Below, piece by piece: positions 20,146 through 50,869 of a stretch of DNA of 64,000 nucleotides. Each line of letters begins with the position of its first letter. The first letter of the stretch is position 1. The position numbers were made by a program, and so were the translations under genes. Location of the stretch: the NCBI GenBank assembly GCA_045643285.1, contig JAZUKN010000102.1, positions 109,996 to 173,995 on the forward strand. The letters run 5' to 3'. The DNA comes from Eubacteriales bacterium. GTDB lineage: Bacteria > Bacillota > Clostridia > Oscillospirales > CAG-272. A model generated the notes under the pieces. It saw only the letters and a list, made by a program, of their open reading frames with translations. It did no database searches and was not told where the DNA came from.

Positions 20146-20213
20146 GGTATTGATAAGTATGCCGTCGATTTCAGTATAAGTTAATCCGTTTTTCATTTAT
20201 TGTCCTTTCATTT

Positions 20214-20249
20214 TCGTGTTGTATTTTCGTGTTGTATATCGTGTTGTAT
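20214..20249. repeat. three tandem direct repeats TCGTGTTGTAT
   Basis: Exact 11-mers at 20214, 20227 and 20239, giving periods of 13 and 12 nt. Confidence 0.9.
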
Positions 20250-20332
20250 TTTACAGTTTAGTGAAAGAACAACGGCGGAGCACGGATGTAAAATTCGTGC
20301 TTTCTCATGTTGGATCACCTATATAAACAGAA

Positions 20333-20370
20333 AATCCGAACCCGTAATCCATTAGGATTAGGTTCGGATT
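20333..20370 (-). terminator. intrinsic terminator (minus strand)
   Basis: Hairpin AATCCGAACC..TAATCC-ATTA-GGATTA-GGTTCGGATT (10 + 6 bp). On the minus strand it runs into UUUUCUGUUU. Confidence 0.65.
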
Positions 20371-20379
20371 ATTCCTGTT

Positions 20380-20503
20380 TGGTGCGGGAAACGGGACTTG
20401 CTACGACGACTGCCGTCGTCTACACGCCCTCGCCCGCGCAAAACTGTCCACCGGACACTTTTGCTTCCGCGCCATTGGCGCTCCGGGCTGTTCAAGTCCC
20501 GTT
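20380..20503 (-). other. tRNA-Leu-derived structured element (3' fragment with encoded CCA; pseudogene, att scar or tRNA-like RNA)
   Basis: An 18-nt exact copy of the tRNA-Leu 3' end (20383-20400 = 20554-20571) plus a collinear CTACACGCCC. An 11-bp terminal inverted repeat is at 20390-20400/20493-20503. Three internal hairpins are present. It has no canonical cloverleaf. Confidence 0.5.
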
Positions 20504-20522
20504 AAATATTGCCATATAACAC

Positions 20523-20546
20523 AAAAAAGCACCATACGGTGCTTTT
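20523..20546 (-). terminator. intrinsic terminator after tRNA-Leu (hairpin is bidirectional)
   Basis: Stem GCACC/GGTGC with a 4-nt loop. There is U6 on the minus strand and U4 on the plus strand. Confidence 0.7.
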
Positions 20547-20553
20547 AGTGTTA

Positions 20554-20635
20554 TGCGGGAAACGGGACTTGAACCCGTACAGTGTGAACTACACGCCCCT
20601 CAAACGTGCGCGTCTGCCAGTTCCGCCACTCCCGC
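20554..20635 (-). tRNA. tRNA-Leu (anticodon GAG)
   Basis: Hand-folded. Acceptor GCGGGAG/TTCCCGC, anticodon stem CACGT/GCGTG, loop TTGAGGG, long variable arm, T arm ACGGG-TTCAAGT-CCCGT, discriminator A. CCA is not encoded. Confidence 0.85.
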
Positions 20636-20670: not shown

Positions 20671-20699
20671 ATTATACCACGGTACTTCGGTTTTGTCAA
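20671..20699 (-). promoter_or_regulatory. consensus sigma-A promoter of tRNA-Leu
   Basis: Minus strand reads TTGACA, 17-nt spacer ending in TGg, TATAAT. Confidence 0.7.
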
Positions 20700-24948: not shown

Positions 24949-26430
24949 TTATACGCTGAATGTAAGCTCAGCCATTTCGTCTTTGTCGATGACCTTGTCA
25001 AAGCGGACAGCCATTCCTTTAACCTTGGAAAGCGGCGCGGGAATCTTCGTATCCGTCGCGGCTGAAAGGGCTTCCAGACCTGCAAAAACGTCGTCGGTCT
25101 GCTTTACTCCTACTGCCTCGGAGACAGCAGGTGCGAATTTGTACGGGCTGGCGGTGGACGCAAGTATCAAGGGAGTCATGTCGCCGCTTTCGGCGCGATA
25201 TTTCAGTACAGATCCGTAACCGACTGCCGTGTGTGTGTCGATGAGGTAGTTTTCGTCAACGAATACGTCGTGGATCGCACCGAGCGTTTCGTCCTCGTCC
25301 ATATAGTACGCGGAGAACTTTTCGCGTATCTTTTCCATAAGTCCGTCGGGAGCGGTGTATTTGCCGTTTTCTTTCAGCTTTGCCATAAGCTCCGACGTGA
25401 TCTCTGCGCCGCCGAGAACGGACAGAAGCCGCTCAAGATTCGACGAGATGAGAATATCCATGGACGGCGAAACGGTTTTGTAGAATTCTCTCGTTCTGTC
25501 GTATACTCCCGTGTTTACAAAGTCCGTGAGAACATTGTTCGAGTTCGACGCAACTATGAATCTGCCGACGGGAAGTCCCATAAGAGACGCGATATACGCC
25601 GCGAAAATATTACCGAAGTTGCCGGTCGGCACGCAGATGTTCACTTTGTCGCCGAAGACGATCTCACCCGATTTCACGAGATCGCAGTACGCCGAGATGT
25701 AGTATACGATCTGCGGAGCGAGACGCCCCCAGTTGATCGAGTTTGCGCTTCCGTAGAAGAAGCCGTTTTCGTTTGCTTTTTCGGCGAGCTGTTTGTCGGA
25801 GAAGATCGCCTTTACGCCGTTCTGTGTGTCGTCGAAATTTCCGCGGACAGCCGCGACATAAACGTTCGAGCCGGTCGTCGTCTGCATCTGGAGCTTCTGC
25901 ATCGTGCTTACACCGTCGACAGGGAAGAATACCGTTATCTTCACGCCGTCAACGTCTTTGTAGCCCTCAAGCGCGGCTTTTCCCGTGTCACCGCTCGTTG
26001 CAACGAGAATGTGCGCTGTGCGTTTTTCTCCCGTCATTCTGAGCGCAAGGGATAAGAGACGCGGCATGATCTGCAGTGCCATATCCTTGAAAGCGCAGGT
26101 CGGACCGTGCCACAGCTCAAGCGCGTGTACGCCGTCTCTCAGCGTGTGTATGGGTGCAGGACCGCCCGGAAAGCTCTCTTCCGAATAAGCGGCACGGCAC
26201 GCCTCAAGAAGCGCGCCCTTGTCGTAATCGTCGAGATATAAGCCGAGGATAAACGCGGCTCTTTCGGCGTAATTCATATTCATAAGCGCGTCGAAGTCAC
26301 CCTTTGCGAGCATCGGGAAGCCCTCGGGAATATATAGTCCTCCATCCGGCGCGAGCCCTTGCTTTATCGCCTCCGCCGACGAAACGCAGACGGGATTTTC
26401 TCTTGTGTCTCTTGTGCTTTTGTAGTTCAT
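24949..26430 (-). CDS. thrC: threonine synthase (long form)
   Basis: 493 aa, with PLP-lysine context TCAFKDMALQ and overall ThrC-like sequence. Confidence 0.9.
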   Translation of the reverse strand: MNYKSTRDTRENPVCVSSAEAIKQGLAPDGGLYIPEGFPMLAKGDFDALMNMNYAERAAFILGLYLDDYDKGALLEACRAAYSEESFPGGPAPIHTLRDGVHALELWHGPTCAFKDMALQIMPRLLSLALRMTGEKRTAHILVATSGDTGKAALEGYKDVDGVKITVFFPVDGVSTMQKLQMQTTTGSNVYVAAVRGNFDDTQNGVKAIFSDKQLAEKANENGFFYGSANSINWGRLAPQIVYYISAYCDLVKSGEIVFGDKVNICVPTGNFGNIFAAYIASLMGLPVGRFIVASNSNNVLTDFVNTGVYDRTREFYKTVSPSMDILISSNLERLLSVLGGAEITSELMAKLKENGKYTAPDGLMEKIREKFSAYYMDEDETLGAIHDVFVDENYLIDTHTAVGYGSVLKYRAESGDMTPLILASTASPYKFAPAVSEAVGVKQTDDVFAGLEALSAATDTKIPAPLSKVKGMAVRFDKVIDKDEMAELTFSV

Positions 26431-44167: not shown

Positions 44168-45733
44168 ATGGATCTCGCAAAAACCGTACTCGGAATAGAA
44201 CTCGGCTCAACAAGAATCAAAGGCGTTCTCCTCGATGAAAACAATAAACCCATAGCCTCAGGCTCGTTCGATTGGGAAAACCGACTTGTGAACGGAGTCT
44301 GGACGTATTCGCTCGACGAAGTTACGACGGGTATCAGACAGTGCTATGCCGGTATAAAGCGTGATGTGCGCGAGAAATTCGGCGAAACTCTTAAAACAGT
44401 AGGCGCGATCGGCATTTCCGGCATGATGCACGGCTATCTCGTGTTTGACAAAGAGCTGAATCTGCTCACGGATTTCCGTACATGGCGAAATACGATCACC
44501 GGAGAAGCGGCTGAAAAGCTCTCGTCTCTCCTTGATTTCAATATGCCGCAGAGGTGGAGCATCTCGCATCTCTATCAGGCTATCCTGAACAGGGAAGAAC
44601 ATCTGCCGCGCCTTGATCTGCTTACGACTTTATCGGGATACCTTCACCTACTTCTGACAGGCGAGAGAGTTGTCGGAATAGGGGAAGCATCGGGTATGTT
44701 CCCGATAGATCCCGAAACCTTGCAGTTTGACGCGCGCCGCGTTAAAATCGTTGATAAGCTCATCGAAGACGCAGGGTACACGTGGAGATTTGCCGATATA
44801 ATGCCGCGTGTCGCTCTTGCAGGAGAAAATGCAGGAACACTCACCGAAAGCGGCGCACTTTTCCTTGATCCCGACGGCGACTTGCAATCCGGTATACCTT
44901 TTGCACCTCCGGAGGGAGACGCAGGCACGGGAATGATCGCCACAAACTCCGTCAGAGTCGGAACGGCAAACGTCTCTGCAGGAACATCCGCGTTCGCTAT
45001 GTTCGTCGTTGAACATTCGCCGAAAGCACATCTCGGAATTGATATGATAACGACGCCGGCAGGGAAGACCGTGGCTATGGTACACTCGAACACCTGCACG
45101 ACCGATATTAACGCATGGGTAAATCTGTTCGGTGAAGTGACGGAAGCGGCAGGGGTCAATATCGACAAAGGAGAACTCTTCCCGATACTGTTCCGCAAAG
45201 CACTTGAGGGAAAAGCGGACTGCGGAGGCGTGCTTACATACAATATGTTCTCCGGCGAAGATGTAGTCGGACTGAACGAAGGCAGACCGATGCTTGTCCG
45301 TGAGCAGAACGCCGAAATGAATCTTCCGAACTTTATGCGCTCACTTCTTATGTCTGCTATGGCAACATTGCGGATCGGCGCTGATATTCTTAACGCGGAA
45401 GCACCGATAAAAGTTGAAAAGATCTGCGGTCATGGCGGTTTCTTCAAGACTCCCGAAGTCGGGCAGCGGATACTCTCGTCCGCATTTGCCGCGCCTGTTT
45501 CCGTACTTGAAACAGCGGGTGAAGGCGGTCCGTACGGAATGGCACTGCTCGCCGCATATATGCTCAGAAAGAGCGTCGGCGAATCGCTCGAAGACTTTCT
45601 CGACAAAGTTTTCGTCGACGCAAAAGAAACGACGGTTATGGCGACGCCCGAAGAAATCGACGGCTTTACAAGATATACCGGGCGGTACAGAAATGCGCTT
45701 GCAATTGAATTTGCGGCTATAAACGTAATCTGA
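44168..45733 (+). CDS. FGGY-family carbohydrate kinase (xylulokinase-like)
   Basis: GIELGSTRIKGVLLD N-terminal ATPase motif, about 520 aa. The start was set to the ATG at 44168 (SD AAGGAGAAG). Confidence 0.75.
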   Translation: MDLAKTVLGIELGSTRIKGVLLDENNKPIASGSFDWENRLVNGVWTYSLDEVTTGIRQCYAGIKRDVREKFGETLKTVGAIGISGMMHGYLVFDKELNLLTDFRTWRNTITGEAAEKLSSLLDFNMPQRWSISHLYQAILNREEHLPRLDLLTTLSGYLHLLLTGERVVGIGEASGMFPIDPETLQFDARRVKIVDKLIEDAGYTWRFADIMPRVALAGENAGTLTESGALFLDPDGDLQSGIPFAPPEGDAGTGMIATNSVRVGTANVSAGTSAFAMFVVEHSPKAHLGIDMITTPAGKTVAMVHSNTCTTDINAWVNLFGEVTEAAGVNIDKGELFPILFRKALEGKADCGGVLTYNMFSGEDVVGLNEGRPMLVREQNAEMNLPNFMRSLLMSAMATLRIGADILNAEAPIKVEKICGHGGFFKTPEVGQRILSSAFAAPVSVLETAGEGGPYGMALLAAYMLRKSVGESLEDFLDKVFVDAKETTVMATPEEIDGFTRYTGRYRNALAIEFAAINVI

Positions 45734-45846
45734 AATTATCAAATAACAGAAAACGGGAGCTATTTGTCACGGCTCCAGTTTTTGCATGAAAAAAGACCGC
45801 GGGATCAAATCCCACGGTCTTTTCGGTTTAGATTTATCCGACCGGA

Positions 45847-50692: not shown

Positions 50693-50793
50693 GATGTGTT
50701 CCACTTTGCGGAACGATAAGTACACTTCGTACGTGAAGCGTACTTGCTCCGCAAGTACAGTGAAGTAGCCTGCGGGCGAGTGTGGAACACATC
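50693..50793 (+). other. unclassified 101-nt structured element
   Basis: 12-bp perfect closing inverted repeat GATGTGTTCCAC/GTGGAACACATC. It encloses an imperfect 17-bp hairpin (TTGCGGA..AAGTAC..CTTC / GAAG..GTACTT..TCCGCAA). The strand is not determined. Confidence 0.4.
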
Positions 50794-50794
50794 T

Positions 50795-50869
50795 CTTCAC
50801 TTTGCAAAGCAAAACTTCACTTCGGCGAAGCCGATACTTCACTTTCGTCGTAAGACGAAAACTTCACTT
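50795..50869 (+). repeat. four CTTCACTT direct repeats, three of them followed by short hairpins
   Basis: Exact 8-mers at 50795, 50815, 50837 and 50862. The hairpins are TTGC-AAA-GCAA, CGGC-GAA-GCCG and TCGTC-GTAA-GACGA. Inverted copies (GTGAAG) lie at 50733 and 50760. Confidence 0.85.

Follow-up and report, generated by a model that had tools for sequence, protein, structure and literature searches.

The 124-nt element behind the tRNA-Leu(GAG) gene on the minus strand of the window (the whole stretch of 64,000 nucleotides analysed here) is one copy of a multi-copy family of small, folded, non-coding cassettes found just behind tRNA and tmRNA genes. Family cassettes are about 95-190 nt long and stand at the 3' ends of stand-alone tRNA/tmRNA genes; each is built from copies of the T-arm and 3' end of the neighbouring tRNA wrapped around a hairpin core, and the structure of the family is under selection. 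The explanation that we favour, and to which we give somewhat better than an even chance, is that these are non-autonomous, site-specific insertion cassettes that function as folded DNA and are moved in trans, probably by tyrosine recombinases.

Organization of the tRNA-Leu(GAG) locus

Read along the minus strand, the locus consists of a promoter, tRNA-Leu(GAG), a first terminator (terminator 1), a 13-nt spacer, the 124-nt element and a second hairpin terminator. Its features, all on the minus strand, are the following.

20671-20699, minus: promoter of tRNA-Leu(GAG), TTGACA-17-TATAAT with TG in front, matching the sigma-70 consensus at 12 of 12 positions
20553/4-20636, minus: functional tRNA-Leu(GAG), called by ARAGORN and Rfam (45.1 bits), with no encoded CCA
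20554-20571, minus: DR1, first copy of the direct repeat, the final 18 nt of the functional tRNA-Leu(GAG)
20517-20553, minus: terminator 1 (stem 20546-20525), an extended palindrome TAACAC...GTGTTA beginning directly at the tRNA end
20380-20503, minus: the element, 124 nt, starting with AACGGGACTTGAAC and closing with CAAGTCCCGTTTCCCGCA and CCA
20490-20503, minus: AACGGGACTTGAAC, inverted copy of the T-loop and 3' T-stem of the neighbouring tRNA, the 5' strand of helix P1
20469-20481, minus: hairpin P2a, GCGCC-AAT-GGCGC, with counterparts having other stems in the tmRNA, Leu(CAA) and Ser(GCT) copies
20432-20488, minus: helix P2, GCCCG/CGGGC (20484-20488 paired with 20432-20436), enclosing P2a and P3
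20438-20464, minus: core hairpin P3, AAAAGTGTCC-GGT-GGACAGTTTT, with the family-defining apex GTCC-GGT-GGAC at 20446-20456
20405-20420, minus: hairpin P4, GACGAC-GGCA-GTCGTC, immediately 5' of DR2
20380-20400, minus: DR2, the displaced native tRNA 3' end CAAGTCCCGTTTCCCGCA (20383-20400) followed by the native CCA (20380-20382)
20390-20400, minus: T-loop/T-stem part of DR2, CAAGTCCCGTT, the 3' strand of P1
20333-20370, minus: native terminator of tRNA-Leu(GAG), AATCCGAACC...GGTTCGGATT, moved 171 bp downstream
20383-20553 or, in the equivalent register, 20401-20571, minus: the 171-bp insertion, as given by the spacing of the direct repeats and by comparison with empty sites

An earlier, sequence-only reading of this DNA had described most of this anatomy, and all the features that it listed are present at the positions given: an exact 18-nt repeat of the tRNA 3' end (20383-20400 equal to 20554-20571), CCA (tgg on the plus strand, 20380-20382) after the downstream copy only and absent from the functional gene, an inverted copy of the T-loop and T-stem giving an 11-bp inverted repeat around nested hairpins, and a terminator on either side of the element. 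The inverted repeat measures 11 bp against DR2 (20390-20400 with 20493-20503) and 14 bp against the T-arm of the real tRNA. The upstream terminator corresponds to the 20546-20525 stem; the downstream one, at 20333-20370, was missed by our terminator scan because its T-run is interrupted, and is the orthologue of the native tRNA terminator at empty sites. Both strands of the element fold better than shuffled sequences (z = -3.9 and -3.6). Helix P2 pairs in the plus-strand fold and in sister elements, while the minimum-energy fold of the minus strand uses an alternative pairing, and P3 of the window copy contains one G-G mismatch and one flipped pair.

A promoter scan found no promoter for the element, as had been noted before, and no plausible coding frame is evident in it at this locus: the sole open reading frame of the region, 70 aa on the plus strand, spans the hairpins and extends into the flanks. 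The flanking genes code for a CHAP/dockerin protein, an ABC transporter, ComEC and RNase H; they are all ordinary genes and were rejected as helpers.

Empty sites and the inserted DNA

In the sister genome G016 the site is empty, with tRNA-Leu(GAG)...TTTTCCGCA-CCAAAC... leading directly to AATCCGAACC...GGTTCGGATT. The predicted empty junction GGTTCAAGTCCCGTTTCCCGCACCAAAC is also present in three contigs retrieved by a scan of a metagenome collection, where tRNA-CCA is directly joined to a terminator about 90% identical to window positions 20382-20333 (the loci compared are L018 in G016 and L326-L328 in the metagenome contigs). As tRNA-CCA runs straight into the downstream terminator at the empty sites, 171 bp have therefore been inserted in the window. 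The downstream copy, its CCA and the second terminator are thus the native tRNA end, and the 171-bp insert consists of a new 18-nt end for the tRNA, terminator 1, the inverted copy of the T-arm, and the core of hairpins. Terminator 1 is missing at the empty sites and is therefore part of the inserted DNA. The insert provides a new last 18 nt and a new terminator, and the tRNA gene remains intact. This accounts for the CCA of the element, which is the one encoded by the native gene, and for its absence from the functional gene, whose native 3' end was displaced by the insertion.

The earlier reading had proposed, among other possibilities, an att-site scar with a displaced tRNA 3' end. This holds for the 3' part of the element, with a direct repeat at the locus and an empty site in relatives, and fails for the idea of a simple scar left by a lost island, the rest of the element belonging to a family with members in many Oscillospirales genomes. 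The 153 bp between the repeats are made up of the terminator and the hairpins, with no integrase or other genes.

A family of cassettes in the source genome

BLAST of the element against its own genome gave partial matches behind tmRNA, tRNA-Leu(CAA), Leu(CAG), Ser(GCT) and Glu(CTC). The common plan is a tRNA followed by a terminator, an inverted copy of its own T-loop/T-stem, P2 enclosing the apex GTCC-GGT-GGAC, a variable P4, a direct copy of the last 18-24 nt of the same tRNA, and a second terminator. The 11-mer GTCCGGTGGAC occurs eight times in the genome and not once in the reversed control. A covariance model (R1), made from 19 short-variant copies none of which belongs to the subfamily of the window, recovers the window element end to end (20383-20504, 26.6 bits, E ~6e-4) and identifies 10 copies in the source genome, each just downstream of a different tRNA or tmRNA gene: Leu(GAG), Leu(CAA), Leu(CAG), Ser(GCT), Ser(CGA), Ser(TGA), Arg(CCG), Gln(CTG), Glu(CTC) and tmRNA. 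The 5' part of the element, previously regarded as unrelated sequence, indeed bears no similarity to the 5' half of a tRNA; it is in fact the conserved core of this family. The tRNA-Cys gene of the same genome is followed by a core-less mini version. At one copy of the family, ARAGORN makes a false call of a permuted tmRNA.

These copies bear on the suggestion that the element is a decayed tRNA-Leu(GAG) paralog, a leftover of tandem duplications of the kind seen in relatives. Several sister genomes do carry two tandem tRNA-Leu(GAG) genes, and the collinear 10-nt match to the anticodon stem (CTACACGCCC, 20420-20429 equal to 20589-20598) on which attention had been drawn is genuine. However, the segment GAGGGCGTGTAG is also found in the sister elements behind tmRNA and tRNA-Leu(CAA); it is therefore a trait of the subfamily and not a local remnant of the tRNA. 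Consistent with the earlier statement that the element cannot form a cloverleaf, ARAGORN and Rfam call no tRNA within 20380-20503, Rfam returning nothing even at E <= 10; the 5' half of a tRNA has no counterpart in the element, and the same architecture stands behind nine other tRNA/tmRNA genes of the genome. Descent from a tRNA paralog is thus effectively refuted by the family evidence and is scarcely credible.

Distribution and position at tRNA ends

Of 301 genomes of the same order, 59 contain the 15-mer CAGTCCGGTGGACTG, the highest number being 17 copies in one genome; the reversed control has none. Elsewhere in the phylum, the R1 model has matches in only 3 of the 400 other genomes that were sampled. 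Many 15-mer matches in viral contigs and outside the Firmicutes are due to chance and were filtered by context and by the covariance model. Carriers include Ruminococcus, Oscillospiraceae, Acutalibacteraceae, Faecousia and other rumen and gut Clostridia, and the complete genome of the cultured Ruminococcus sp. JE7B6 has seven R1 matches.

A complete tRNA or tmRNA gene lies at most 420 nt upstream, on the same strand, for 55 of the 92 distinct model matches; these 55 loci span 23 tRNA isoacceptors as well as tmRNA, and the median distance from tRNA end to element is 50 nt. In 33 of the 37 cases that could be measured, DR2 starts 17-19 nt from the 3' end of the tRNA, corresponding to T-loop position 55-57, which is the classic T-loop crossover site of tRNA-targeting tyrosine integrases. 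The P1 arms were parsed by anchoring on the tRNA; automatic stem finding picks the terminators instead.

Structure and covariation

Among 41 model-aligned copies, pairing is found in 88.8% of cells compared with 73.2% after shuffling (none of 500 shuffles reaches the observed value), double compensatory changes are seen in 24 of 28 pairs, and pairing falls to at most 53% when the partners are slid by 1-3 columns. The covariation of P1 follows from its make-up, both arms being copies of the tRNA, while P3, P4 and the inner pairs of P2 covary independently. P3 is 98% paired, with compensatory changes in seven of its nine pairs and stem variants such as CAGTCC/GGACTG, CGGTCC/GGACCG, CAATCC/GGATTG and GTCTCC/GGAGAC beneath an apex shared by the whole family, YCC-GGN-GGR; the stem of P4 is free to vary and its loop is (C/G)G(C/G)A. 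Whether the element is conserved with compensatory changes or is a strain-specific scar had been left as alternatives by the sequence-only reading; a family that covaries and has members in many Oscillospirales genomes settles this against the scar. The P3 hairpin is also present in repeat families unconnected with tRNAs, and the core hairpin may have a more general role.

In RNA families, G-U pairs are normally in clear excess, whereas in these stems the mismatch counts are near equal, with 25 G-T/T-G against 19 A-C/C-A; this symmetry points to hairpins acting as DNA, or on both strands. One subfamily has a conserved tandem G-A/A-G at the foot of P4 that speaks for the tRNA-sense strand. The family could alternatively be a structured RNA with a tRNA-specific function, transcribed by read-through from the tRNA promoter or co-transcribed in tRNA arrays, which could, for example, act as a decoy or sponge, be a partner in processing or quality control, or give rise to T-loop-to-CCA 3' fragments, with P1 and a single-stranded acceptor tail as its functional ends. 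Such an RNA would be in keeping with the conserved, covarying three-way junction, with the conserved unpaired nucleotides (the YCC-GGN-GGR apex, UGAAUGA/AGAG and CUGACCGAG...CGAGAG), and with the tandem G-A/A-G of P4, which is favourable only on that strand; the element moreover always lies on the same strand as the tRNA with a terminator always after it, one phage tRNA array has an element between tRNA-Arg and tRNA-His with no intervening terminator, and orthologous copies are better conserved than their flanks. We nevertheless consider it unlikely, as it sits poorly with the G-U count, with an element that has no promoter and is separated from the tRNA by a good terminator, with the existence of core-less mini versions, and with patchy, multi-copy, tandem and partly deleted copies that resemble a mobile element; nor does it match any Rfam family.

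A known RNA family or ribozyme was rejected on the latter ground, Rfam 15 giving no match for the window copy (at the gathering score and at E <= 10) or for 20 other loci (at cut-offs of 0.05 to 5). The hammerhead ribozyme was rejected as well: in the one subfamily with a CUGACCGA-stem-GAGAG segment, the invariant core is broken by an extra C and by G at A14.

Signs of movement between tRNA genes

With the arms removed, the identity among the interiors of the Arg(CCG), Gln(CTG), Ser(TGA) and Ser(CGA) copies is 89-96%, and these tRNAs have the T-arm GGGTTCGAATCCC in common; between the interiors of the tmRNA and Leu(CAA) copies it is 92%. The window copy is nearest to the tmRNA (71%) and Leu(CAA) (67%) copies of its own genome, compared with just 51-62% identity to the elements that sister species have at their orthologous tRNA-Leu(GAG). 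These identity patterns point to recent spread inside this genome. In a single genus, tRNA-Leu(GAG) is accompanied by three different subfamilies, by tandem tRNA genes or by nothing. Two-unit tandem arrays of cassettes are observed, the tRNA-Gln of G011 being followed by two different elements in tandem; one family copy is internally deleted, and at the tRNA-Gln of G015 a lone inverted repeat is left. The subfamily correlates with the T-arm sequence, as would be expected if the arms serve as an address. At the exact window locus, no excision product or strain-level polymorphism was seen.

Search for the mobilizing enzyme

Integrases are ubiquitous, and no recombinase could be tied to the family. 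Tyrosine integrases using the same tRNA ends adjoin many copies and, where this can be judged, the element sits in the host flank immediately beyond the prophage attR. On contig C68, a tyrosine-integrase island is apparently integrated into DR2 and not into the tRNA, DR2 being the hybrid CGAATCCC|ACACCC... where the tRNA has CGAATCCC|TTTCCC....

Several established kinds of mobile DNA were considered and rejected. The Y1 transposase (PF01797; IS200/IS605, RAYT) is absent from most high-copy genomes (Y1-negative are G062, G179, G284, G309, G228, G195 and G291); an IS200/IS605 or RAYT helper, or a REP/BIME with its RAYT, was discarded because Y1 is not associated with the family. The reverse transcriptase domain PF00078 is absent from 8 of the 11 carrier genomes tested and, in four copies, the identity of the repeat continues past the mature tRNA end into a non-CCA trailer, which argues for copying from DNA and not from mature tRNA; a retroelement-derived repeat (retron, group II intron or SINE-like) was rejected on both counts. 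A MITE was rejected because the inverted arms are derived from the target and specific to each copy, and no autonomous partner was found. The elements are also no part of a prophage: a phage collection gave no match, and in viral contigs the element lies outside attR, near host-type genes.

A related but passive origin would make the cassettes a by-product, consisting of attL/attR remnants of repeated integrase events that were reshaped by snap-back replication errors at the palindromes of the terminator and the T-arm. The direct repeat is just such a displaced tRNA fragment as integrases leave (PMC4383910, PMC9897764), prophage ends abut many copies, nested partial tRNA copies are present at tRNA-Ser(CGA), and at one phage tRNA-His the stretch from the T-loop through the 3' end, the terminator and the inverted copy form a perfect palindrome, as snap-back would yield. 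However, scars would not share a covarying core at 10 tRNA/tmRNA loci of one genome with interiors 89-96% identical, nor retain their structure across bacterial families, and the element is found in the host flank of prophages and not inside them; we judge this origin improbable. Even less probable, in our estimation, is a device of benefit to the host, in which DR2 would be a spare or decoy attachment site and the terminator an insulator, diverting islands from the functional tRNA or repairing the tRNA 3' end after faulty integration. The island of contig C68 is what such a device would be expected to capture, and elements mark the tRNAs favoured by integrases (Leu, Ser, Arg, tmRNA), but this case is single; most of the prophages nearby went into the real tRNA, and their partial tRNA copies, which begin in the anticodon loop or the T-arm, lie upstream of the element; the conserved internal hairpins would be left unexplained.

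A model for the insertion cassette

The favoured explanation, a non-autonomous cassette acting as folded DNA, can be put in the following terms. Crossover would occur in the T-loop (nt 55-57) by site-specific recombination, with the enzyme supplied in trans, and the hairpins would act as folded DNA and not as RNA. The inverted and displaced copies pair as P1, clamping a conserved three-way-junction core (P2-P3 and P4); by analogy with integron attC or with the attP(+) hairpin of the CTX phage, P1 would re-create a duplex copy of the target site. Spread would be easiest among tRNAs with a common T-arm, and the cassette would resemble, on a very small scale, a cis-mobilizable element.

Whether the mechanism of movement is itself new is a separate matter. 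It is conceivable, although clearly less probable than the above, that a protein-less, hairpin-clamped DNA (or RNA) module homes to the universally conserved T-loop of any tRNA or tmRNA gene, which would make it a new kind of mobile element. The stem copied from the target would then be the address, the YCC-GGN-GGR hairpin could be a handle for the mobilizing machinery, and the replacement tRNA 3' end and terminator that are carried along would make insertion harmless; mobilization might be by a borrowed recombinase or by an undescribed fold-back/strand-exchange mechanism.

Some observations strain a simple version of the favoured cassette. Across the family, both arms always match the local tRNA; simple integration of a circle would import the old acceptor strand, and two local copies thus call for extra steps, possibly gene conversion or palindrome correction, or for another mechanism. 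The native terminator is found after DR2 in the window and at the tRNA-Gln of the source genome, and after DR1 (before the element) in G008 and G011; this difference in position means that one simple polarity of insertion does not fit all loci. Terminators flanking orthologous elements about 90% identical are wholly different between sister species. The palindrome at the phage tRNA-His hints that fold-back copying or palindrome correction shapes such loci. Orthologous elements are conserved from one species to another, and a function for the host could be another reason for this.

Relation to known systems

The 3' ends of tRNA genes are the main landing pads of prophages and genomic islands. 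Fragments of tRNA/tmRNA 3' ends are displaced at attL/attR of integrase-borne islands and prophages (Islander/TIGER, PMC4383910; fragments, PMC9897764). Similarly to these att fragments, the direct repeat of the family extends from the T-loop as far as the discriminator base, the tRNA is made whole again by the inserted DNA and its native end is displaced, and the same classes are concerned (Leu, Ser, Arg, tmRNA). In contrast to islands, the cassettes have about 150 bp and no genes between the repeats, they contain a folded core that is conserved and a copy of the target in inverted orientation, and they occur as many copies per genome at different tRNAs with one common core.

CIMEs and other integrase-less, att-flanked mini-elements are accreted in tandem with ICEs, as in the ICESt1/CIME system of Streptococcus thermophilus. 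IMEs have been reviewed (PMC5704250). The cassettes are likewise non-autonomous, have att-type repeats and form tandem arrays beside integrase-bearing elements at a tRNA end. Unlike CIMEs, which measure kilobases and are deletion derivatives of one ICE, they measure 0.1-0.2 kb, occupy many tRNAs and are defined by their hairpins.

The attP(+) hairpin of the CTX phage consists of two inverted dif-like sites about 90 nt apart. As in attC and CTX attP(+), two inverted target copies, spaced by about 90 nt, can in the cassettes form a stem imitating the duplex target, structure is kept more than sequence, cassettes form arrays, and covariation is without wobble bias. By comparison with these systems, the P1 stem covers one half-site and part of the loop, and the target is the T-loop of a tRNA; no IntI/Xer link, R/L boxes or extrahelical bases were identified in the cassettes. 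With MITEs and REP/BIME, the cassettes share a short, non-coding, multi-copy and patchy nature, terminal inverted repeats and internal hairpins; unlike them, the cassettes have terminal repeats that are taken from the target and vary from copy to copy, and insertion is strictly at tRNA ends.

The family is apparently undescribed, being absent from Rfam 15 and from the literature searched, where full-text searches found no description of such elements. A displaced 3' end is what integrases ordinarily produce (PMC4383910, PMC9897764); the new part is a conserved, covarying core that is clamped by a target-derived stem and occurs at many tRNAs per genome across a bacterial order.

Implications

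Cassettes are present at up to about one quarter of the tRNA 3' ends in common rumen and gut bacteria, so that att sites, island boundaries and tRNA fragments in these genomes are to be read differently; family copies also mislead tmRNA and tRNA finders. If the elements are RNAs, they would constitute a new class of tRNA-linked RNA. If they are mobilized as folded DNA by borrowed recombinases, they would carry the attC/CTX principle over to tRNA genes and into the Firmicutes, and would provide a compact, target-matched integration module.

The core hairpin outside tRNA cassettes

The CAGTCCGGTGGACTG hairpin is also found within two unrelated high-copy repeats of other genomes of the same order (G062, loci L170-L181; G179, loci L182-L189), one of them a repeat of ~330 nt and the other a MITE with terminal inverted repeats of ~35 bp; each is present in 17 copies, and no copies of either lie near tRNAs in these two genomes. 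Viral contigs (L045, L055, L056, L058 and others) carry the hairpin in reverse orientation, within a conserved structured leader immediately upstream of a phage gene start.

Repeats and motifs neighboring the cassettes

A second repeat family, AGTGATGTGTTCCAC...GTGGAACACATCTC, consists of units of ~100 nt enclosed between inverted repeats, after which come CTTCACTT-hairpin modules; at three cassettes, it lies directly beyond the second terminator. Its members in the genome holding the window (G000), the one in the window being putative, are the following:

C2, ~26140-26240: repeat unit
C97, ~68110-68210: repeat unit
C81, ~45640-45760: repeat unit
window, 50693-50869: repeat that may belong to the same family

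Against this family, the Rfam Gut-1 model scores below threshold (31-41 bits, with a cut-off of 50). At the C2 locus (L002, 25869-26454), the “permuted tmRNA” reported by ARAGORN is false and results from the duplication of the tmRNA 3′ end by the cassette.

Other motifs are present downstream of tRNAs. In the window, TCGTGTTGTATTTT is repeated three times in tandem (20206-20252), in the stretch that separates the native tRNA terminator from the end of the convergent ABC-transporter operon. A third tRNA-downstream motif, (G/C)TTCT(T/C)(T/A)CACT(A/G)AACTG..., is located as follows:

window, ~20255-20275, minus strand
contigs C101 and C2 of G000, behind tRNA-Gln(TTG) and tRNA-Arg(ACG)

At the tRNA-Gln(TTG) and tRNA-Arg(ACG) loci, a T-arm-like copy devoid of the acceptor strand is found ~60 nt past this motif.

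A core-less cassette, nested repeats and possible integration histories

Three further loci lie in the same genome:

C14, ~81950-82060: core-less mini cassette behind tRNA-Cys(GCA)
C68, L195 229-1437: tyrosine integrase, 402 aa, facing the tRNA-Ser(TGA) cassette
C86, ~25620-26110: tRNA-Ser(CGA) locus with nested repeats

The mini version comprises, in order, the inverted T-arm copy, a single GAA-loop hairpin and the direct copy of the tRNA end. On C68, the downstream repeat of the tRNA-Ser(TGA) cassette has a hybrid sequence, as though integration of the island had taken place in the cassette’s copy and not in the tRNA. On C86, a 121-bp unit made of a terminator and a partial tRNA starting at the anticodon stem flanks the cassette on both sides, and this arrangement points to an integration history of a different, anticodon-loop type at tRNA-Ser(CGA).
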